A stretch of DNA of 62,279 nt, counting the filler, from Globobulimina sp. (lineage: Eukaryota): NCBI GenBank assembly GCA_003354225.1. It is 23 parts of 23 records of this genome, joined end to end, with 100 filler letters (N's around TTAATTAATTAA, not from the genome) between each part and the next. Parts side by side here need not be neighbours in the genome. Positions count along the whole stretch, not along the records: positions 10,857 to 13,470 come from PIVH01005719.1; 22 more parts are not named here. One strand, given 5' to 3'. The position numbers and the translations under genes are program-made. Positions 6,219 to 32,045 of the stretch are shown piece after piece. Within the stretch, counting starts at the first letter, position 1; every line of letters starts with the position of its first letter. Below the pieces are notes generated by a model. It was not told the origin of the DNA, made no database searches, and saw nothing but the letters and a program-made list of their open reading frames with translations.

Positions 6219-7313
6219 TTATTTTTGTGTATTTATTTTATGATTCGGTTTATAAAAGCTAGTTTGTGTCAATATCTCAATTTTTTGGTTTCCAATAATA
6301 TCATTATTATTTACTATCAATGGCCAAACATAGTACAGAATTCGTGGACATTTCATATTTGATCCGGAGACTCTTAAATGTATATCTTGATTAAATTGAC
6401 GATTTTGTATTTCATCAACTCTCCAAAATGAAGGGTAAAATTTTAAATCTGATAAAAGCATCACCCAACAAAAATTACAACATTTATTGATAAATCGCAT
6501 AATTTCAACAATCTCTTCGCTCTCTGATGCCAAATTAAATATATTTAATGCAATCTCTTTATGATAATATTCATTGCAATGCGCTTTTAAAGCACATAAA
6601 ATATCCAATGCTATGTCCTCATTGTTGTTGTCCTTTTGTTTATATCCTTTTTTTTTGGTAGAATTATATGTTTGCATTAAAATATTAAACATGAGTTCAT
6701 GGCAAATCTGATTTGAATAAAATTTATTATATTTATATTTATTTTGAATGAAAGTTTTCAAAACATTTATAGTTTGCGTATATATGTCATCTCTGATATC
6801 GTGAAACATCCATAATGTCTCTTGAAATAACGGTGTTTGTTTTTTATTCATTTTATTCAGTTCATCTAATTTAAGTATTAATTTTTTGCATTGTTCCCGA
6901 TATGGTAATAATGCTTTGATTGTATCATCTTTTCGAGAAATAACATTTTTTAATCGATTTATTTCATTTTTATTGGAGGTTTGTGTATGTTTTAACGTGT
7001 TATAACATTCTTGAACGTGTTGATTTTCATTATGAAGTTCTTTTATTTTTTTTCTGGTTTGATTTGCTAATTTATGTTCATTTAATGTTAATAAATTATT
7101 TCTTTCTTCTAATTCTTGCTTTTCATGTTTTAATTCTTCATTTTTACGGCGTAATTTACCATTTGCGATCTGTAGTTTGTTACATTTTAAATTCTTTTCG
7201 CGTAAAATCCGTCTTAAATGTCTTATTTCGTCCTGGGGGTTGGTCAAATGAGAATGTTGTCGTAACAGATAGGCTTCCGGTTCAATTGTGTCACCAAGAC
7301 ATTTAAAATTCAT
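6219..7313 (-). CDS. Coiled-coil protein with Mieap/SPATA18-like C-terminal domain
   Basis: Long heptad-rich N-terminus. C-terminal FINKCCNFCWVMLL...FNQDIH...GS...ILYYVWPLI resembles the Mieap C-terminal domain. Confidence 0.55.
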   Translation of the reverse strand: MNFKCLGDTIEPEAYLLRQHSHLTNPQDEIRHLRRILREKNLKCNKLQIANGKLRRKNEELKHEKQELEERNNLLTLNEHKLANQTRKKIKELHNENQHVQECYNTLKHTQTSNKNEINRLKNVISRKDDTIKALLPYREQCKKLILKLDELNKMNKKQTPLFQETLWMFHDIRDDIYTQTINVLKTFIQNKYKYNKFYSNQICHELMFNILMQTYNSTKKKGYKQKDNNNEDIALDILCALKAHCNEYYHKEIALNIFNLASESEEIVEIMRFINKCCNFCWVMLLSDLKFYPSFWRVDEIQNRQFNQDIHLRVSGSNMKCPRILYYVWPLIVNNNDIIGNQKIEILTQTSFYKPNHKINTQK

Positions 7314-8042: not shown

Positions 8043-8182
8043 NNNNNNNNNNNNNNNNNNNNNNNNNNNNNNNNNNNNNNNNNNNNTTAATTAATTAANN
8101 NNNNNNNNNNNNNNNNNNNNNNNNNNNNNNNNNNNNNNNNNNCATGTTTGGATTTACCTGTCAATTTGTGAACAGCAAATCA

Positions 8183-9529
8183 ATGGACACAAAGAATGAC
8201 CAAACCAAAATGCCATGGAAGTCTATACAAGAATTATCCAACTTGCTTCGTAAAATAGGCAATGGATTCCGAACTCTTGATGAATTTGATGGTTCTGTAA
8301 ACAAACTAAATAATGTTTTAAAAATACTGAATGAAACAGATGCATTGAACAAATGTATTTGGCTCATACACATTAATGAGAATAAAATGTGCATTCGAGA
8401 TTTAATATTTGTCCACATCCAAACTATTGGACATGTTTTCCTGCAAAATGACCAACAAAACGCCACCAAATCACTGAAAACAGACATAAAAAATTACCAA
8501 AACTTTTTCAAATATTTATCCAAATTATTATCATCCGATTCATTTAATTTATTCACTAGAAAGCAAATAAAAAAACTTAAACAAATTACAGAATCAGTAA
8601 GAAATTATAAAAAAGATAATCAAATGTCAATCATTGAAAAACAGCATAATTTATTAAAACAGAAACAGAATGAATGTAAAATGGATACTGATGTTATTCA
8701 AAGATTGCAAGCAAAGCTTACTCCAAAAAGATTGAGTCGATGTGAAATGGTATTAAAACAAAGAACGGATCGAATTATTTTAGTATTGGACCAATGTTAC
8801 GATGTTCGCAATCAATGCGCTATGTTGCGGACTGCGGAGCTATTCGGAATACAAAATATTTGGATGGTTAAACCTGTAAATTATAAAAATATGAAAGTGC
8901 ATAACTCTGTTTCCCGCCATGCACAGTTATGGTTAACATTGAGATATTTTAATTCTTCATTGGAATGTATTCATGCTTTAAAAAAGGAAAAGGAAAATAT
9001 GAAAATCTGGGTCATGGATATTGGCAAAGGTGCATTGGAATTATCTACGGAAATAATTGATGAATATAGAAATAAGAAACGCATATTTCCACAGCATTTA
9101 GCTGTTGTAATGGGCAAAGAAGCGGAAGGGCCAAGTGCGGAGTTTCTAAAATGTTGTGATGGAAAAGTATATTTGCCACAGTTTGGGTTTTGTGAATCAT
9201 ACAATGTCTCTGTGGCCTGCGCATTGGGATTGCAATGTATATTTTCAATGGATGCAACCATCAGAGGCACAATGAGTGAAATTGAAAGGAATAAATTAAG
9301 ATATTTGTGGTATTATCAGTTAGTGAATGATAAGGAAATAAAACAAGAAATGGGAGAGTTAATAAACAAAACAATTGAATTGAATGGAAATAATAATAAT
9401 ATGAATAATGATTTTCGAAGGGATGGATTTGAACATTGGGATTCAAACAAAATAAACTTTAAATTGAGAAAGAAACTCGAACAACAACAAACACTCAATT
9501 TCTTGCAACAAGCGAATGATAATGACTAG
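8183..9529 (+). CDS. SpoU/TrmH-family RNA 2'-O-methyltransferase with N-terminal extension
   Basis: SPOUT motifs: ILVLD...N..AMLRTAELFG, AVVMGKEAEG.S, VYLPQFGFCESYNVSVA. Confidence 0.9.
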   Translation: MDTKNDQTKMPWKSIQELSNLLRKIGNGFRTLDEFDGSVNKLNNVLKILNETDALNKCIWLIHINENKMCIRDLIFVHIQTIGHVFLQNDQQNATKSLKTDIKNYQNFFKYLSKLLSSDSFNLFTRKQIKKLKQITESVRNYKKDNQMSIIEKQHNLLKQKQNECKMDTDVIQRLQAKLTPKRLSRCEMVLKQRTDRIILVLDQCYDVRNQCAMLRTAELFGIQNIWMVKPVNYKNMKVHNSVSRHAQLWLTLRYFNSSLECIHALKKEKENMKIWVMDIGKGALELSTEIIDEYRNKKRIFPQHLAVVMGKEAEGPSAEFLKCCDGKVYLPQFGFCESYNVSVACALGLQCIFSMDATIRGTMSEIERNKLRYLWYYQLVNDKEIKQEMGELINKTIELNGNNNNMNNDFRRDGFEHWDSNKINFKLRKKLEQQQTLNFLQQANDND

Positions 9530-10222: not shown

Positions 10223-10756
10223 ATGGTGTCACAAGAGACAGTTTACATGACGGTAGCTATCAGTCTGACTGTATTTGGATCTATAGGTAATGCTCTGGGA
10301 TATGTATGGCAGAAAAGAGGACATTTGTTGCTCATTCAAGAAAATGAAATACGTAAAATACAACACGAAGAACTTAAACCATTAATAACGCATAGAATAT
10401 GGCTCATTGGATTCATTGTATGTCTTATCGGCTCTATTTCGACTGCGGTTGCATTTAAATTTGGGGCTCAATCAGTCTTATCACCACTGAGTGCACTGGT
10501 TTTAGTGTGGAATGCAATTCTCGCAAATAAAATTCTAGGCGAGTCTTTCACACGGAATAATTTATACGGAATCATATTGGTTATCATAGGAACAATTGTT
10601 GCTATTATTTTTGGGCCCAAATCTAGCACTGCGCCCATTACATTGTCATACATTGAGTCATGTTGGAGAAATCATATTTTTTTAATCTTTTTTATTGTAT
10701 TGAGTCTATTGCTGTTGATTGACTATGTTTTGCTGAATAGATTTGAAAAGAAAAAC
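10223..10756 (+). CDS. NIPA-family magnesium transporter, 3' truncated
   Basis: GNALGYVWQKRGH, IWLIGF, AFKFGAQSVLSPLSAL.LVWNAILA...LGE, FGPK. Confidence 0.88.
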
Positions 10757-10857
10757 NNNNNNNNNNNNNNNNNNNNNNNNNNNNNNNNNNNNNNNNNNNN
10801 TTAATTAATTAANNNNNNNNNNNNNNNNNNNNNNNNNNNNNNNNNNNNNNNNNNNNC

Positions 10858-11055
10858 ATCACAACTTACGTTATATTTATGGCTGAAAATAATTTGATAT
10901 CGGAAATGTTTGAGTTGAAGCAATTAATTATGCAATCCACGCATCAAGAAAAATTTAAGCAACTTATCAATGTATTAAGTGATGTTGACTACGAAATATA
11001 TCTGCAACAGGACTCCGCATCGCAGCTCTACCAACGTATTAAGTCTGTTGAATAA
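10858..11055 (+). CDS. C-terminal fragment of an unknown protein
   Basis: Open frame from the contig start (ITTYVIFMAENN...RIKSVE*). Confidence 0.4.
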   Translation: MTTYVIFMAENNLISEMFELKQLIMQSTHQEKFKQLINVLSDVDYEIYLQQDSASQLYQRIKSVE

Positions 11056-11283
11056 TACAATAGTGATACTTTGATTACTTGTGTATATGTTTTTAGATAT
11101 AGTACTTACTGCTTAACGATATATTCAGAAACTGTTTGCTATAGGTTTGTCTTGGGTTTGTTCTGTGTTTGTTATAACTTTGCAAATCGAGAACAAAGTC
11201 AGAACAAATTTATAATCCAAACGTTTAGTGCTTTCTATCAAAAAAGATGACAGTAAACGAAAGTGTAGCAACTTATGCACGCA

Positions 11284-12930
11284 TTAGATATAAGCATCCT
11301 CGTATGGAATAGCATGGCCTATAACATTTTGCCAACTATCTTGGTTATCTTCCACATATAAATCCATGTAGGTATCTCTTGTTATTAACACCTCACATTC
11401 ATCACTGAATTTACTTATCCACGATACGTCTGCACAAACAATACCGCCTCTACTTTTTCTTTCCATTTCAATTATCATTCCACCGTTGTTATTCTTTTTA
11501 TCATTATTCATATATTTGATTGCAACATCCCTTTTCCATGATGCACTTACAAATGTTTTAAATATTCCTCTTTGTTTCTTTTCCACTAAATTTGTTGTTC
11601 GTAAACCTGTATAAATTTTATATTCACCACATTCCTTTATGTGTAATTTGCAAATTGCTGAATCTAAACAATATTCCATCCACTGCCATTTATTTTTAAT
11701 AATAGCATTAGAATTAGGATTAATTGTTTTATTTCTTTGATACTCTGATAAATACCAATTACATTCACATCCCGTATATAATATAATTGCTAACATCTCG
11801 CCACGGTTTAATGGAGAACCTAATGCTTTATGTCGGGAATGATTTATTTTTTCATCCACAATGCGTAATATTCCATATTGTTTTTTATTTTTTATTTTAT
11901 TATTTGTAGTCGTATCATCTTCTGGAATAATTAAGTCATTCTCAAATCCATTTTTTTGCATTTCCGCAATCAATGCATTCAAACAACCATCTTTTTCTGA
12001 CCAACTCCATTTTATTTTAGCCATACTCGGTATTCTCCTCTTATTCATTAAAAATGGTTTGTTCTTTGATGTGATTTCAATCTCTCTATTTCTGGGAGGA
12101 TGTCTATATATTTTCATATGACATCTATCATCCAACCGATTCCCTCCTTTTTGTAACCTTAAATATTTGAAACATTCTTCATCGTATTTCTTATCATCCA
12201 TATATTGACACAATTCTTTGTCATAAATATCTTTGTAATGTGTAAATTCATTTAAATGTTTTAAATATTCCTCTGTGTATTCATAATCTTCTTTTACTTT
12301 CGCAAAAATAGGACATTTCCCACTATTTCTAATATATTGACATGTGATTTGCGTTCCAGCGGCGGATACATCATGTTTTAACTTAACAGATACTGTTAAT
12401 GTGTTATCTTTACTCTTCCACCAATGACAGACACTAAATGTTTGGGGGTAATATTTTTTTTGCATTTCTCGTTCAATTTTCGCTTTTATTTCTTTTGATT
12501 TTGCGATTTGCAGCAAAAGACTGCCAACTGATAAATCAACATTGATTGTGATTTGTGTATTGTTGAAATCAGGGTTACCACCACAAATAACTATAATATT
12601 TGCTACAGCATGAATCTTTGGAGGAGGTATTTGTGCTTTGTTTTTCTTACTTTTCTTATTGGTTTTAGGTTGCATTGTTTTTTTGATTTGATATTGTTTG
12701 TTTTTTGCATCATATTTAAATTTTTTTAAATTGTTAGCCAATGTACTGTTAAATCTGCTTCCTACACAAATCTTGTATTGTTTTGCAGAATAATTAGTTT
12801 TGATATATTCTGAAACTTTCTTTTTTGATGCTTTTCCTGGCAACGAATTTATAGCTTCAGTTATCATTTTGGTCCAACCAGGATGACTCTTTTTTGTTAT
12901 TGCTAAAGCTTCATTTGTTTGCTTAGTCAT
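11284..12930 (-). CDS. Linker-histone(H15)-like + tandem PBZ-like zinc finger + R-S-E-clade ADP-ribosyltransferase domain protein
   Basis: N-term SHPGWTKMITEAINSL..ASKKKVSEYIKTNY, then a Lys-rich linker. Two C..C...H-x5-H motifs (HLNEFTH, HMKIYRHP). C-term LAIILYTG, KIYTGL, FVSASW...VA, ADVSWISKFSDECEVL. Confidence 0.75.
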   Translation of the reverse strand: MTKQTNEALAITKKSHPGWTKMITEAINSLPGKASKKKVSEYIKTNYSAKQYKICVGSRFNSTLANNLKKFKYDAKNKQYQIKKTMQPKTNKKSKKNKAQIPPPKIHAVANIIVICGGNPDFNNTQITINVDLSVGSLLLQIAKSKEIKAKIEREMQKKYYPQTFSVCHWWKSKDNTLTVSVKLKHDVSAAGTQITCQYIRNSGKCPIFAKVKEDYEYTEEYLKHLNEFTHYKDIYDKELCQYMDDKKYDEECFKYLRLQKGGNRLDDRCHMKIYRHPPRNREIEITSKNKPFLMNKRRIPSMAKIKWSWSEKDGCLNALIAEMQKNGFENDLIIPEDDTTTNNKIKNKKQYGILRIVDEKINHSRHKALGSPLNRGEMLAIILYTGCECNWYLSEYQRNKTINPNSNAIIKNKWQWMEYCLDSAICKLHIKECGEYKIYTGLRTTNLVEKKQRGIFKTFVSASWKRDVAIKYMNNDKKNNNGGMIIEMERKSRGGIVCADVSWISKFSDECEVLITRDTYMDLYVEDNQDSWQNVIGHAIPYEDAYI

Positions 12931-12966
12931 GATCAACCCAAGTGATATCAAGAAAACACTTTTTGC

Positions 12967-13470
12967 ATGATGGCAAATCCATTTCCAAGTAGATACGAAT
13001 TAAAATGTTCAGGAATTTCGTTTATTTTGTCTCAACTTTTAATACTTTGTGCATTCTTTCTGTATGCAATTGATTATGATTCGTACTCTGTGCAAAATGA
13101 AGAACAAGTGATTGAACTCCATAACGTATTATCATCAAAAGAGCATCGAACCGAAGTTGAAATTGCAGTTTCATGCATGTGGTGCGCCTATCCGTTATTA
13201 TTAATCGGCTTATTTGGTTTTTAACAACAATACATAAGGAAACAGGCGAAATGTTTTTATTTGCAGCAGTTCAATCGTATATTATTTTTATTACAATAGT
13301 TTGTGTAGTAATACCCGCCATTGCTCTCACCACCACTTCATTTGAATGGTCCTTTCATGAATATACGCCAGAACCTGATTTTGTAGCCACTGGCTATTAC
13401 ATCCAATTATATCTCCAAGTATTTGCCGCGGAAATGGTAGACTGTGCTGCCGTGGCCGATGCTGTATTTA
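12967..13470 (+). CDS. Multi-pass membrane protein, frameshift at 13218-13222, 3' truncated
   Basis: Hydrophobic helices are split across ORFs 12967-13224 and 13173-13470 at a T5 run. Confidence 0.5.
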
Positions 13471-16451: not shown

Positions 16452-17633
16452 TTAACGGAGATCCTCAATGTCTATTTTACTGTTCTTACAATCACGATCC
16501 CTGGCATAGCATTGGAGAGGTTTACCACCATGAATAATACAGCGATTTTCATGATCGCACAAAGAAATATGACTCGGATTTTGTTGGATTTTATCCAAAA
16601 AATCTGGTTCTCTCAACAATGCTCTCCCAATTGAAACCAATTCAAATCCAGATTCGAATGCCTTATTTATATCATCCAATGATGTAATACCACCCAAATA
16701 ACATACAATAGCTCCATTTTTATTTTTACTTTTAGCTAAATCCAATCCATTCAATAATTCCAACGAAGTTTGCAACAGAAACATTGGTCGAAATTTAACC
16801 TTTGGAATCCACCATGGCCCAACCAAAGCAATCCCGATTTTTTTAATCCACGACACAGACTCCATCGCCATTCGGTAAATCGGCACACTCCCTCTCATCT
16901 GAAATATTCCATTCGATGAAATGAAGCCAGCGGTAGGAATAACAACATCTGCTCCATTTTGTATTAAAATTTGACAAAATTGTATTGATTCTCCAACAGT
17001 AACACCACCATCTACCCCATCATGCGAATTTATTTTGACAAATATTGGAAACGAATCGCCGCATAATTCACGTATCTTTTTGACGATATCTGCGGCAAAC
17101 CGGCTTCGGCTTTGCATGGATTGTGCGCCATATTCATCATTGCGATGATTGGTCAACAAAGATAAAAATTGACTGATTAAATATCCATGGCCACAATGCA
17201 AAGTTACTGCGTCGAATCCACATTGTTTGCATAACAACGCTGCTTTGCCAAACTCCTTTATCTTTGTTTTGATATCAATGATACTCATTTCCTTCGCAAA
17301 TTGAAATGCGGCCCAACTCCATACACGTGAGGCACATACACGTTGATGATCCGCCATGAAGCCAGCATGTGTTAACTGGATGGATATTGCAGCTGCAGTT
17401 TGTTGATGAATAGTTGATGTTAATTGTTTTAAGCCTGCTTTGTTTTGTGGTAATAGTAGTAATTGGAAACATCCATAAGAGACTGTTACCATTCCTGCAT
17501 TGTATGCTTGTTCGACATGAAATTGTATCAATGTATCACTTACTTTGCCATTCAAGGATGCTGACTCAAAAGTTGCTGATTTAATGATTCTATTTCGTAA
17601 TACAACGCCACGAATTTGAATGGATGTATTCAT
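16452..17633 (-). CDS. NADH:flavin oxidoreductase (Old Yellow Enzyme family)
   Basis: LRNRIIKSATFE, IQLTHAG, GFDAVTLHCGHGYLISQFLS..TNHRNDEYG, GRALLREPD, C-terminal C.H.N.C. No introns. Confidence 0.92.
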   Translation of the reverse strand: MNTSIQIRGVVLRNRIIKSATFESASLNGKVSDTLIQFHVEQAYNAGMVTVSYGCFQLLLLPQNKAGLKQLTSTIHQQTAAAISIQLTHAGFMADHQRVCASRVWSWAAFQFAKEMSIIDIKTKIKEFGKAALLCKQCGFDAVTLHCGHGYLISQFLSLLTNHRNDEYGAQSMQSRSRFAADIVKKIRELCGDSFPIFVKINSHDGVDGGVTVGESIQFCQILIQNGADVVIPTAGFISSNGIFQMRGSVPIYRMAMESVSWIKKIGIALVGPWWIPKVKFRPMFLLQTSLELLNGLDLAKSKNKNGAIVCYLGGITSLDDINKAFESGFELVSIGRALLREPDFLDKIQQNPSHISLCDHENRCIIHGGKPLQCYARDRDCKNSKIDIEDLR

Positions 17634-21518: not shown

Positions 21519-21710
21519 TTTTGTGTGTATTGATATTTTGTTTGTAATTTTTTGACTTTTTTGTTTGTTTGTGTGTTTTTTAGACTCGCTTATTTTTACT
21601 GAATTTCTTANNNNNNNNNNNNNNNNNNNNNNNNNNNNNNNNNNNNNNNNNNNNTTAATTAATTAANNNNNNNNNNNNNNNNNNNNNNNNNNNNNNNNNN
21701 NNNNNNNNNN

Positions 21711-22962
21711 CAATAAATTGTTTGCATTGCGAATGGTTTTTCATATTTAAGCAGGCTTTGATATAAAATGTATTTAATATTTCATTCTCTTTATATATTT
21801 GCCCATTATGTTTGTCATATAATTCCAATGCAAGCTCACTTTTATTATTATTGATGAACACTTTCATCATTGTTCCAATGGAAACATCATTAAACATATT
21901 ATTGTTTGATACTAAAATATTAAATATGTTAAATGCAGATGAAACATCACCAATTTTGCCATAAAAATCCATTAAATTGTTCATAAATGCAATGCAAGGA
22001 ATGTTTCCTGTTTTGATCTCACTCATTTTTGAATGGATTAAATCTTTGCACTGATTGTAATCATAAATATTGCCACAAGCTCGCATAAATAGCATATTTA
22101 AGATATCATTTGTTTCGCCGCATAATTTATAGAATACAATAGCTTTTTCATTCTCTTTGTGCTTTATCAAAAACTTCATCATTAAACCAAGTAAATGCAA
22201 ATTATTCTTCTTCTTATTCTTATTTGTAATATCTGTAAATATATTCAGTATATCTTTGATGTTTATGTCTTTACAAAGCTTTAAATCTGTAAAATTTAGC
22301 AATGCTTTAATAAATAAGTTATTTGCTATTTCATTATCTCTTTTATGTTGTTGTGTATATAAAAGGACGGCTTCATTATTTCTCTCATTATTTATCAAAC
22401 ATTTCATCATAACACCAATAATAAAGATATCTTTCCTATGATTTGGAATTGAGTTAAATACATTTTTTGCTTTTAATAATTGTTGGCAATCGGAATAAAT
22501 CTCAATTAATAATGTTTTACTACGAATACCATCAAAGTCATTGTTATTTGTTAATTGTTGATTTATTTTATTAACAATCGTCATTATTTTATTACAATCT
22601 GTTTGATTGTCTGCCATTATTTGTTTACAACATTTTAATAATATGGTCCATGAAATATTTTCGATTTTAAAGATATCGTCATAAATTTCAAGAATTTTAT
22701 AGCTTTGATTGGAAGCAAAGTAAAATTTTAATAATGTATTCACCACAAAATGATTCTTTTCTATTACATTGAGATTATTATATACTGTCAATATTTTACC
22801 ATTAATATCAAGAATATTGTTTGAGTTTATTTGTTGTGATAAACACTTTATTTCTCGAACTGCGCCATGACTGTCATAACGAGTCTCCAATATTGAGGTT
22901 GCTTTATTACAATATGAATGTTTAAGTGAGCTTGTTGCTGTTTTGCATCTTATTTTAATCAT
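21711..22962 (-). CDS. Pentatricopeptide repeat (PPR) protein, 3' truncated
   Basis: Degenerate ~33-35 aa repeats (NTLLKFY, LLIEIYSDC..AKNVFNSI, MLFMRACGN, NNLMDFYGKIGDVSSAFNIF, YIKACLN). N-terminus is basic and Ser/Thr-rich, presequence-like. Confidence 0.88.
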
Positions 22963-23004
22963 AAAGTTAGAGACATAAGAACGAAAATCTCTTTCCAAAT
23001 CAAC

Positions 23005-24114
23005 ATGTTCAAGAAACGCTACAATGTGGTTGATGATGAAGAAGAAGAGCAGCAACAACAACAGGCGAAAGTACTTAGACATGGTTTTAAATTGATGTTA
23101 TTGTTAATTGTAACCACCATATTATTTGCAACATCGTTCTCATTTGGACTGTTATACGAAGGAAAGAAAGATTCAGAAGATAAGATGGAGGAAAACGATT
23201 CAGAATATTGCGAGTCCGTTACATTTTTGGATGCTATATTATCCTGATGATAAAAATGAATATCAAAAGCATCCATCAGTACAGAAAGCAATGATGTTTT
23301 TTAACACATGCTTTTATTTCGGTGGTGAATTTGACGAAGAAGGGCAGAAACAATCATTTGATCAAATATTGGGTAAAGTTGACTTTGCAAACACAGATTC
23401 AGAATGGACCGACGTATGTAAACTATATTTTATATTTTCAAAACTGTGCTGTAATATTATATTTATATTTTTGTACTGTTTAATTACATAAAGGACGTAA
23501 TTGATGGTTTTCATTCCGCATTGGAGCATTTCTCAAATGTTAATTTTGAGATTTTATTTAAAATCGATGCAGTCAACCAAGGTGTTGTTAAAATAACACA
23601 AACAAAAAATTGGATTATTTATCCTGTTCTAATGCAAGATGTTAGATCTAACGTGTTTTTTAGAAAGTTGGCTGTTTTGGTTGAAGAAACACCACCTTTT
23701 GTGGTACAATCATTTATAATTAATTCTGTTATTTTAAATGATATAATATTTTCTGAGAAACACAAAGCCTATGGATATGCTATGAGGGACGCAAAGTATA
23801 AGAGTTTGGTGTTGATTTAACAGAGGAACAGTTGTTTTTTGTTGGATGGGCACGAGGTACATCCATATTTTATATCATATCCATGTATACAATATATATA
23901 ATTATGTACATCGAGTCGTCCACATTTTGATTCATTGAAAAAAAGTACGTATGTTGAAGGGAGAGAAACCGATCCCGGCGCCTATGACAGCGTACATGCT
24001 CCAAGATATTCGCGAGTCGTTGGACCGTTGCAAAATATGCCTCAATTTTCAGAAGCATTTAATTGTAAAGTTGGATCGATGATGAATCCACAAAATAAAT
24101 GTAAATTATGGTAA
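23005..24114 (+). pseudogene. Neprilysin/M13 peptidase pseudogene (frameshifts, large internal deletion)
   Basis: Type II TM N-terminus; DLTEEQLFFVGWAR; C-terminus HAPRYSRVVGPLQNMPQFSEAFNCKVGSMMNPQNKCKLW*. No HExxH found and the locus is far too short. Confidence 0.8.
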
Positions 24115-29846: not shown

Positions 29847-32045
29847 TATGGCAAAGAATATTCCATAAATATTTCGAAACTTATATCCAAAGCAAAAACT
29901 ATCACAAAGTTGCAACATATCCACTCTTTGCTGATTATAAAGGATGATATATTTATAAGCACTGCTTTAATAAAACAATATGGTAATTTGAATGATATCG
30001 AATCAGCACTGAATATATTTAATTCAATGCTGTTGACAAAGAGAGATGAAACAATGATCGGTGTCATGCTGCAAACACTGTTAAAGCATGAATGCTACCA
30101 ACAAATGTTAACAATGTATGATTGCTTTGAATATCACAAATTAAATAATGACATTATTAATGCATCAGTGTTGAAAGCATGCATTGAAGCAAATAACTTT
30201 GAAAAAGGACAAGAAATCCATCAACATTTCGCAGCTGTAATCGATTCTGTTTCCATTCAATTAAAAACGTGTTTGATTGGGTTTTATGGACATTTCGGTG
30301 ATATCGATACTGCACAAAAACTATTCAAATCATTTGTGTGCAATAATAATGATATTATAATCGTAAATGCCATGATGACTGTTTTAATCGGCAACAAATA
30401 TTATGAGAATGCACTTTTATTATATGAAGAGACAGCTATGTCCGTAAGGAATATTGTTACGTTTATAGTAGCAATAAAAGCGTGTATTATTAATGGTAAT
30501 TTTACAAAAGGAACGCAGATTCATCAGGCAATTGTTGGTAAAGGCTTTGCGGTAAATGATGATTATTATCATTTATTCAATTTATTGATTGACTTTTATG
30601 GAATGTTGGGAGATGACATGAATGCAATGATAAATATTTACAATGAGATGACTGCAAAGAACATAAATGATATATTGAGTGTAGCAAAAGTAATGAAAGG
30701 ATATATAAATAATGGGCTGATTGATGATGCGCTGATATTTTATAATGAGGAATATTTAAAAGTGAGTATAAATGCAAGAAATGCTTCAAATCCGTATATA
30801 TTAAGCACATTGTTTGAAAACTTTAAAAACATTGGACAGACTCGCAATGTTGAGAATATTTTGAATGATAATAAATATTTATCTTCTTCTGCTTCTTCAT
30901 TATTTGACAGCAGAACTTTGGAATTATTGCTTATTTGTATTCATAGAACATCGAAATATTACCAATATCATCACAAACAAGTCGACCAACAACAAACGTT
31001 TCCCTTTCTGTACAAGGTTTGGAATGAAATTGTGAACAAATTGGGAGTTAAACCAGATTTGAATTGTTATTGCATCGCTATTTTAGCATTGTCCAAATAT
31101 AATATAAATAATAAAGAGTGCAATGATATGTTTAATAGCTTAATAAGTGATATTGTAAATGATAATAATATGATAAATGAGTTACAGTTAAAACCAATTG
31201 AATTCCATCGAATATTAAAAGGTTTAGGAAATGCAAATAAATTGAATGAAATGTGGTTAATGTATAATAAGATTATCTCAGAGGTTCATAACAAGCATGA
31301 TATTGTTGCATTGAATATTTTACTGGAATTTGAAAATAGAAATGAAAAAAAACAAAAAATTTTAAATATTATCCATTCACATTCATATTTGTATCAATGT
31401 TGTCTTTGCAAATCTTTTGTTAATAATCAATGTCTCAGAAAAAACAAAGACGAACGGAATAATGAAAATTGTATTGTTGATAATAATGATAAATTCAAAC
31501 ATTTTGATATAAATAACTTGCGATTATATGAAGTGATTACATTATTTTTAAATTGTCAGAATATTGACAGTAACTTACAAGCATATTTATGGGAAATGCT
31601 ACAAAAACCAAATGTAAATGAATCAAAATTAGAAAGTAACATAATTGCTATGTTTAAATTAAATGGAACAGAATGGATTATACAAAATGGTATTTATCAT
31701 AAATGCAGATTTAAATCAATGGATAAAGTGAATGAGTTAATGAAACAAAGTAATTATTCAATTGATAGCTCAGTTTGTATTGGATCTGTTACAAACAGAA
31801 AAACACGAGAAGTGCATTTAAAATATCATGCCGAGAAAAAAGCATTAGCCATTTTGTTGCATGAAATGAAATTAATGAATAATAAGAATAATAATATTGA
31901 TATTTCTGTTGCAATTTCACTCAAAATGTGTAAAGATTGTCATGCATTTTTTGCAGCTATGTCTAAATATTATAATCAAAGTATTACATGTTTTGATTCC
32001 AATGGAAAACATTTATTTTCTCACGGAAAATGCAGTTGTAATTAA
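29847..32045 (+). CDS. PPR protein with C-terminal DYW-type cytidine deaminase domain, 5' truncated
   Basis: PLS-like PPRs (TALIKQYG..DIESALNIF, VLKAC...FEKGQEIH, LIGFYGHFGDIDTAQKLF). C-term HLKYHAEKKALA...ISLKMCKDCHAFF..SK..NQSITCFD..GKHLF.HGKCSCN*. Confidence 0.92.
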   Translation, partial: YGKEYSINISKLISKAKTITKLQHIHSLLIIKDDIFISTALIKQYGNLNDIESALNIFNSMLLTKRDETMIGVMLQTLLKHECYQQMLTMYDCFEYHKLNNDIINASVLKACIEANNFEKGQEIHQHFAAVIDSVSIQLKTCLIGFYGHFGDIDTAQKLFKSFVCNNNDIIIVNAMMTVLIGNKYYENALLLYEETAMSVRNIVTFIVAIKACIINGNFTKGTQIHQAIVGKGFAVNDDYYHLFNLLIDFYGMLGDDMNAMINIYNEMTAKNINDILSVAKVMKGYINNGLIDDALIFYNEEYLKVSINARNASNPYILSTLFENFKNIGQTRNVENILNDNKYLSSSASSLFDSRTLELLLICIHRTSKYYQYHHKQVDQQQTFPFLYKVWNEIVNKLGVKPDLNCYCIAILALSKYNINNKECNDMFNSLISDIVNDNNMINELQLKPIEFHRILKGLGNANKLNEMWLMYNKIISEVHNKHDIVALNILLEFENRNEKKQKILNIIHSHSYLYQCCLCKSFVNNQCLRKNKDERNNENCIVDNNDKFKHFDINNLRLYEVITLFLNCQNIDSNLQAYLWEMLQKPNVNESKLESNIIAMFKLNGTEWIIQNGIYHKCRFKSMDKVNELMKQSNYSIDSSVCIGSVTNRKTREVHLKYHAEKKALAILLHEMKLMNNKNNNIDISVAISLKMCKDCHAFFAAMSKYYNQSITCFDSNGKHLFSHGKCSCN

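Follow-up and report, generated by a model that had tools for sequence, protein, structure and literature searches.

A degenerate H1-derived N-terminus as a proposed chromatin address on a foraminiferal ARTC-fold ADP-ribosyltransferase of a large modular family

Our analysis of a 62,279-nucleotide stretch of DNA from Globobulimina sp. (assembly GCA_003354225.1), referred to here as the window, describes an intronless gene for a 548-residue protein, P0001, in which a degenerate H1-derived domain, putatively a winged helix, a beta-grasp domain, two Cys2His2 fingers and an ARTC-fold ADP-ribosyltransferase (ART) domain follow one another in that order. The fusion to H1 is rare and recent, a twig of a family that is itself the more important object: large, apparently undescribed, expanded in foraminifera and fitted with swappable address tags. 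The window joins 23 unrelated contigs of 2610-2614 bp each with N linkers between them, and the true neighbourhood of the gene is therefore limited to positions 10857-13470, a contig of 2614 bp (G000:C5719; PIVH01005719.1). As the first-pass annotation had it, the coding sequence is a single uninterrupted frame (11284-12930, on the minus strand, as are all features of P0001 given below) of 548 codons plus a stop, with no internal stop and no intron required, and the motifs cited there are present in its translation. The AlphaFold2 model of P0001, made with 73 family sequences, reached a pLDDT of 80.9 and a pTM of 0.76.

Pfam and fold searches agree on an ARTC-fold ART domain at aa ~300-544 (11299-12033). 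PF01129 scores 27 bits on P0001, above its cut-off of 22.3; Foldseek returned 86 matches to the domain at E <=0.001, with top fold matches all of ARTC type; and fold matches include ART2.2 (Z 16.5, rmsd 3.2, 203 aligned), HopU1 (Z 15.9) and an ART from a toxin/immunity pair (Z 14.9). The ESM Atlas gave ART clusters for aa 190-548 (best 0.85), which we treat as a lead only. The domain carries LYTG at 384-387, IYTG at 439-442, the beta-2 S-x-S motif S462-A-S464 (11539-11547) and an ARTT loop, S506-K-F508-S-D-E511-C-E513 (11392-11415), that matches the X-X-phi-X-X-E-X-E pattern given in excerpts of PMC7827354. The ARTC/VIP2-type fold proposed earlier for the C-terminus is supported. A crude hydropathy scan detected neither a signal peptide nor a GPI-like tail, the maximum over 11 residues being ~0.3 at both ends.

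Thr441 (11608-11610) occupies the beta-1 position that holds Arg in R-S-E enzymes. Across the alignment of 158 family proteins, to which the counts of conserved residues in this text refer, this column contains Ser 64 times, Thr 39 times and other residues 14 times, with 41 gaps, so that Ser or Thr accounts for 103/117 residues. Because Arg occurs in 0/117, its loss is a family signature and no quirk of P0001: the replacement of Arg by Thr beside an intact E-x-E had been seen correctly, but it is not specific to this protein. The distant metagenomic relatives L087 and L089, which have both fingers, carry Arg in the same column and so confirm the beta-1 register; L081, which has one finger, carries His there. 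The tree was rooted by choice on an Arg-bearing sequence and so does not prove the direction of change. Other ART families of the same genome keep the Arg in 8/13 loci, as read by eye. Elsewhere in the active site, S462 and S/T464 are each found in 102/106 proteins, S506 in 100/100, F508 in 95/100, E511 in 100/101 and E513 in 98/101; LYTG and W504 are also nearly invariant, and among 96 complete cores E511 is kept in 96 and E513 in 94. The ART region evolves at a dN/dS of 0.35 relative to the paralog L003.

According to excerpts of PMC7827354, ARTs use the strand-1 Arg to bind NAD and the strand-5 Glu to cleave NAD+, and their target depends on the sixth ARTT residue, Glu at this place going with Arg targets. 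Because the Ser, W-x-S and E-x-E positions are nearly invariant, we suggest that P0001 is active, probably as a mono-transferase specific for Arg, and that its NAD site has been remodelled. The loop is conserved across sequences that share 28-50% identity, which speaks for a catalytic enzyme whose NAD site has changed, and we consider it quite probable that P0001 has some enzyme activity. Judged by its residues, P0001 would be an R-S-E-like mono-ART that lacks the strand-1 Arg, and we do not file it as a canonical R-S-E member.

At the other end of the protein, aa 15-82 (12685-12888) appear to form a degenerate linker-histone (H1)-derived winged-helix domain, as indicated by profile, hhalign and Pfam searches and by a guided model. 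Against a profile of nine H1 genes from the same genome, aa 1-110 score 16.2 bits, compared with a maximum of 7.9 in 2000 shuffles, and hhalign aligns the N-terminus to H1 at 60% (E 8.6e-5). For PF00538, the two scores lie on either side of the cut-off of 22.4: hmmscan yields 19.4 bits and the genome search 23.9, the latter with 18 matches, 17 of them besides P0001. The H1 origin suggested by the first-pass annotation is upheld by the profile and hhalign values; as far as sequence comparison indicates, the N-terminus derives from H1 and its globular domain came from the organism's own linker histones. In the H1-guided model, built with ten rows (the nine H1 genes and a second fused-type start), the piece adopts a helix-strand-helix-helix-hairpin order and has histone H5 as its top fold match (Z 6.8, rmsd 2.7, 68 aligned), a result guided by the H1 sequences themselves; KAT6 WH domains are also among the fold matches of this model. 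H15-like winged helices likewise serve as DNA anchors in KAT6A/B and in plant SMH/TRB proteins. In the ESM Atlas, again as a lead only, the H1 cluster came second for aa 1-105 (best 0.76). The Lys-rich linker that follows (aa 83-105; 12616-12684) is modeled with low confidence (pLDDT <50 at 73-98) and is a possible nuclear localization signal or DNA contact; overall, aa 1-105 contain 26 K+R against 4 D+E. The one match of P0001 in a PDB sequence search, SiAga1 (E 9.7e-5, aa 43-130), was rejected because little more than a YKICVG stretch is alike and the match crosses two predicted domains.

The joining of this H1 piece to the family core is also seen outside the P0001 contig. An 899-letter contig from a different study (run X2) covers 12064-12902 (aa ~10-289) in one piece at 97% identity and joins the H1 part, the beta-grasp domain and both fingers. 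It differs at 27 of 845 letters and has a 6-base insertion that keeps the frame. A second locus, C38406, has the same H1-type start at 87% DNA identity with different upstream DNA and runs off its contig. The linkage of the fingers to the ART domain is family-wide.

Between the H1 piece and the ART domain lie three further domains. The first, at aa 106-186 (12373-12615), was overlooked in the first-pass annotation and is a predicted beta-grasp (ubiquitin-like fold) domain common to most of the family; its fold matches are the N-terminal domain of kindlin-1 (Z 5.5), Par3-NTD (Z 5.4) and several UBLs (Z 4.7-4.8), middling values with which the strand and helix order of the model agrees. The second and third are Cys2His2 fingers: finger 1 (12238-12342) reads C197-x8-C206-x18-H225-x5-H231, and finger 2, C241-x11-C253-x17-H271-x5-H277, is followed by a conserved HPPRxR tail and resembles an extended PBZ (12085-12219, tail included). 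All eight ligands are nearly invariant in the family, those of finger 1 being kept in 132/133, 132/132, 136/138 and 135/138 aligned residues. Relative to paralogs the fingers have a dN/dS of 0.07-0.10, a sign of strong purifying selection.

The PBZ consensus given in excerpts of PMC4030884 is [K/R]xxCx[F/Y]GxxCxbbxxxxHxxx[F/Y]xH, with a spacing of C-x5-C-x6-H-x5-H. The PBZ end, Hxxx[FY]xH, is found in both P0001 fingers and, across the family, in 136/138 cases for finger 2 and 118/134 for finger 1. The PBZ start, [KR]xxCx[FY]GxxC, is present for finger 2 in strict form in 38/138 and, if the Gly is left aside, in 79/138; finger 2 of P0001 retains KxxCxY and then has a further 6-residue insert. 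Finger 2 of the family is C-x5-C-x17-H-x5-H in 105/138, compared with 8-18-5 and 11-17-5 for the two fingers of P0001. A finger profile matched three PBZs from the same genome, the only three template sequences, at 64% (E 6.6e-5), and singly finger 1 reached a poor 3% and finger 2 a weak 22%. The profile found no PBZ among PDB sequences, only one CCCH protein at E 4.8; the P0001 locus was not among the 5 matches of 9 candidates in the PF10283 genome search; and the whole-model fold search gave no separate match row for the finger region. The PBZ-like look noted in the first-pass annotation, longer spacing included, is supported by ligand order and by the end motif. These fingers look like PBZs with an inserted helix-turn (an 11-residue insert), and by spacing they would not be classed as PBZs.

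P0001 is far from alone. Its own genome holds at least 57 family matches on 48 contigs, from 63 candidates, and a library of 50% clusters yielded 485 proteins at E <=0.001, the best 150 of which were used. The closest relatives are 52-77% identical to P0001, and an alignment-based search added 2 proteins to the 21 found before; the labels of 20 relatives read foraminifera in 7 cases (Bolivina, Globobulimina, Nonionella), a bacterial metagenome-assembled genome (MAG) in 1 (a 945-bp contig) and no organism in 12. The shared core is the beta-grasp domain, two fingers and the ART domain, whereas the N-termini differ: among the 103 of 157 relatives that were scanned, 21 have PH, 3 ubiquitin and none a linker histone domain, and 53/158 proteins start with Met-Gly. 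An H1 profile run over the 158 proteins picked only P0001 (E 9e-4; next 0.12), that is, 0/157 relatives, and a search for relatives of aa 1-110 among proteins of 301-959 aa confirmed 0/74 candidates. Treating the architecture as a unique invention, as in the first-pass annotation, is therefore not supported, its core being that of a large modular family and the H1 piece one recent address tag; the search proposed there for the same architecture in relatives recovers the finger-ART core widely and the H1 start in none of the 157.

Several relatives stand out on their own account. A 92.8-kb contig of a Bacteroidota MAG (L077:2020-6993) encodes a tandem-finger and Arg-less ART core within a 1658-codon frame that also matches TPR, NACHT and pentapeptide domains and adjoins another pentapeptide protein, suggesting either that protists and an endosymbiont-like bacterium have exchanged genes or that the contig was misbinned. 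The metagenome contigs L078-L080 (52-55% GC) encode members with ubiquitin, fingers and ART; their sources are high in GC, and the family probably extends beyond foraminifera. The close paralog L003:816-1673 (minus strand) joins the beta-grasp domain in frame to the ART domain, without fingers or the first helices, through either an internal deletion or a misassembly. Searches further afield confirmed 1/15 pattern matches in prokaryote genomes and 0/32 in viral contigs (alignment A5), found 0/90 relatives in metagenome contigs searched with a single protein, and returned only generic ART matches (8-18% identity) among viral structures.

A second, indirect line of support for a chromatin address, independent of the H1 piece, comes from the nearest paralogs. 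In a tree of 162 cores, P0001 groups with L002, L003, L004 and P0002 at a support of 1.0. Of the nearest relatives whose start is known, L002 opens with MKLRSR and P0002 with MNLRSGR, each followed by a basic stretch, and MXLRSG is described in excerpts of PMC4958301 as the H2A-H2B or chromatin-binding motif of LANA and IL-33. These two MxLRS(G) starts suggest a chromatin-addressed subclade. P0002 is the only one of the 158 proteins with an MXLRSG-type start, and since L002 and P0002 are homologous, their starts count once. Complex prediction of the first 35 residues of L002 on H2A-H2B of the same genome lends weak support, with a score of 0.54 compared with 0.02 for the best control (contact agreement >=33% and partner pLDDT >=45 across runs); the passes at <=0.60 comprise 5/78 solved complexes and every one of the 4 mismatches that passed, and the pass may reflect likeness to the solved LANA complex. 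A genome scan for MxLRSGR-coding patterns was uninformative, with 14 matches against 23 for the control. The most economical scenario would be that the chromatin-addressed subclade came first and that one lineage then swapped its MxLRS(G) peptide for the H1 domain.

The genome itself is rich in ADP-ribosylation genes. It has 61 PARP matches among 73 candidates and 24 ARH-family matches among 25, both counted by exon or fragment, together with 17 PF01129 and 90 core-histone matches; ADP-ribosylation genes are broadly expanded and an eraser family is present. Given the 61 PARP matches, the label "PARP-independent" that the first-pass annotation attached to a writer/reader is unsupported, and if the fingers do read poly-ADP-ribose (PAR), P0001 would act downstream of PARPs.

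In the model that we favor, P0001 is an intracellular mono-ADP-ribosyltransferase of a family in which exchangeable N-termini direct each paralog to its place in the cell. Its basic H1 piece, together with the linker, would bring P0001 to nuclear DNA, where E513 would cleave NAD+ and E511 would position a target arginine on a chromatin protein; the NAD site would have been rebuilt around the Ser/Thr that replaces Arg. The fingers could bind ADP-ribose or PAR and so gate or focus the enzyme, a tentative assignment that we hold to be somewhat doubtful and that the explanation can dispense with, and the ARH-type hydrolases of the genome would reverse the mark. Functional chromatin targeting seems moderately likely from the evidence above; because activity is quite probable and targeting moderately likely, the two together, and hence the favored explanation as a whole, fall slightly to the doubtful side of even.

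Several observations weigh against this explanation. The beta-1 Arg, important for NAD binding, is absent, and the fingers of P0001 depart from the defining spacing of PBZs, finger 2 having its additional insert. The H1 piece looks damaged, with helix 3 shortened by 6 residues; its unguided model has helices without a wing at a pLDDT near 60; Foldseek found no match for it at E 0.001, the best being a linker histone at E 0.32; and the Z of 6.8 to H5 lies within the usual background and comes from a model guided by H1 sequences. In the X2 variant, 5/8 listed changed codons in aa 20-67 alter the residue. Finally, MxLRS is only 4-6 letters long, and its two cases are homologous.

The alternative that survives best, although unlikely, is an active enzyme with an idle H1 piece, a recent and decaying passenger or a mere basic patch without chromatin targeting. 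The short helix 3, the missing wing and the non-synonymous changes just listed fit it, as do the lack of H1 in all 157 relatives and of any relative of aa 1-110 among the 74 candidates; moreover, when the sequences are aligned by eye, L002 and P0002 each have a Met opposite Met86 of P0001. Against it stand the indels seen in the H1 part of the copies, which are in frame (the 6-base insertion of X2 and a 2-codon gap in L022), a dN/dS of 0.34 relative to L022 over a tiny sample of 34 codons, and the Met1 that L022 retains; the sister N-termini are likewise of chromatin type.

Rather unlikely, too, is that P0001 belongs to an anti-parasite arsenal, in which the H1 piece aims the enzyme, or NAD consumption, at foreign DNA (a virus factory or an endosymbiont) or nucleic acid and not at host histones. 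The spread of the family over 48 contigs of one genome, its rapidly swapped N-termini and the same finger-ART core inside the NACHT/pentapeptide protein of L077 agree with defence, and excerpts of PMC3417536 describe ART effectors of endosymbionts that have been recruited repeatedly into eukaryotes. However, none of the 32 viral pattern matches was confirmed as a member, many N-termini (PH, Met-Gly) indicate ordinary signalling sites, and Glu at ARTT position 6 favors protein Arg over guanine.

A dead or nearly dead scaffold, whose ART domain binds its target or ADP-ribose without transfer and whose fingers read, is improbable. It would account for the family-wide absence of an Arg important for NAD binding and for fingers that are more constrained than the ART region (dN/dS 0.07-0.10 against 0.35), but against it stands the near invariance of E-x-E, S and W-x-S at 28-50% identity, which extends to bacterial and distant metagenomic members. 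As a rule, ART pseudoenzymes have lost the Glu. That the assembly wrongly joined an H1 gene to an ART gene is highly improbable: the assembly is fragmented (48,370 contigs) and no single piece in any sequencing run examined spans the whole gene, but the 97%-identical X2 contig, from another study, runs from the H1 part through the fingers (aa ~10-289), the H1 piece is 16-31% identical to the nine aligned free H1 genes and 96% to the second fused-type start, and the link from fingers to ART is common to the whole family.

Returning to the favored explanation of an enzyme addressed to chromatin, a bolder extension, itself improbable, is a relay from PARPs to an ARTC enzyme, in which the PBZ-like fingers would read PAR made by PARPs and switch on the Ser/Thr-Ser-ExE enzyme, which, held on nucleosomes by the H1 domain, would write Arg-ADP-ribose on histones. 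If true, P0001 would be a dedicated nuclear writer of Arg-ADP-ribose and the chromatin branch of ARTC signalling inside the cell, a whole system whose addresses are membrane, ubiquitin and chromatin and which is shared with a bacterial endosymbiont-like genome.

Excerpts of one review present ARTCs as ecto-enzymes unable to modify histones and list ADP-ribosylation of H1 Arg34 without an enzyme (PMC8027728). A eukaryotic ARTC-fold enzyme with a histone-derived anchor would offer a direct, testable counter-example to that statement, although no direct conclusion about nuclei of mammals follows from it. More is to be gained from the family, whose hundreds of members keep E-x-E intact but have no Arg on strand 1 and so pose the question of how NAD is bound in the absence of the residue that defines the class; the natural series of Arg, His, Ser and Thr in the beta-1 column connects R-S-E with H-Y-E enzymes, and the fingers may represent a new ADP-ribose-reading module. 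Among the matches listed in a literature search that included foraminifera and Reticulomyxa, no account of the family or the fusion was found; subscription-only surveys of the natural history of ARTs (such as de Souza and Aravind 2012 and Aravind et al. 2015) lay outside its reach and may mention the family. Excerpts of PMC4245714 concern PARPs and PBZ-PARP fusions.

Within its contig, the P0001 gene is flanked downstream by a ~95-bp dispersed repeat (11123-11216), hairpin-like with inverted arms and MITE-like, which has 298 candidates genome-wide, 39 other scored copies at 83-89% and a spike in read depth. A head-to-head neighbour (12958-13470, plus strand) begins ~30 bp from the P0001 ATG and consists of two hydrophobic frames, split by a frameshift, for which a Pfam scan gave no match; read depth over it exceeds that over the ART gene, and contigs of runs X2, X6 and X7 have a 10-base insertion near 13216-13220. 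Runs X6 and X7, which may be RNA, consist of contigs that also cover the flanks, and they were set aside as evidence of expression. Other contigs of the window encode a PPR and DYW-deaminase protein (29910-32045, plus strand; E 3.9e-10) and another PPR protein (21655-23082, minus strand), and the PPR/DYW type serves organellar RNA editing. By Pfam label only, they further encode a SpoU methylase with a long N-terminal extension (8144-9529, plus strand), a MIEAP-like coiled-coil protein (6219-7313, minus strand), a NIPA Mg transporter fragment (10223-10756, plus strand) and a flavin oxidoreductase (16452-17633, minus strand), none of which has any relation to P0001.

Compared with known systems, P0001 shares its fold, S-x-S and phi-x-x-E-x-E with the ARTC class (rat ART2.2, HopU1, ExoS/T, Vis, VIP2/C3; PF01129, PF03496), is 14-20% identical to solved ARTC-type members, and differs in the family-wide Ser/Thr for the beta-1 Arg and in the fusion to fingers and a beta-grasp domain; unlike vertebrate ecto-ARTCs, it has no signal peptide and GPI tail by the crude scan. 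Its fingers resemble the PBZs of APLF and CHFR (PF10283) in ligand order, tandem pairing, the Hxxx[FY]xH end and, in part, the KxxCx[FY]GxxC start, and depart from them in having 8 and 11 residues between the cysteines and 17-18 residues, against 6, from Cys2 to His1. The H1 piece shares with H1/H5 (PF00538) the HP-W-M-AI of helix 1 and the GASxxxIxxYI of helix 2, and with own-genome H1s the G-x-x-FN-x-x-L start of helix 3, but differs from the latter in a helix 3 that is 6 residues short at its end and in 5 extra residues before it. P0001 thus carries an H1-derived domain yet is no linker histone: a ~23-residue basic linker and a folded domain stand in place of a long Lys-rich tail, and the piece is fused to an enzyme and is not a stand-alone protein. 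The nearest described analogue is AACRNL. According to excerpts of PMC12957317, the Crinkler-like AACRN/AACRNL proteins of free-living eukaryotes also combine a Ubl-type domain with a toxin-type ART, and a chromatin-linked role is reported for them; their ART is of the diphtheria-toxin-like H-Y-Y type, whereas P0001 combines an ARTC fold with E-x-E and fingers.
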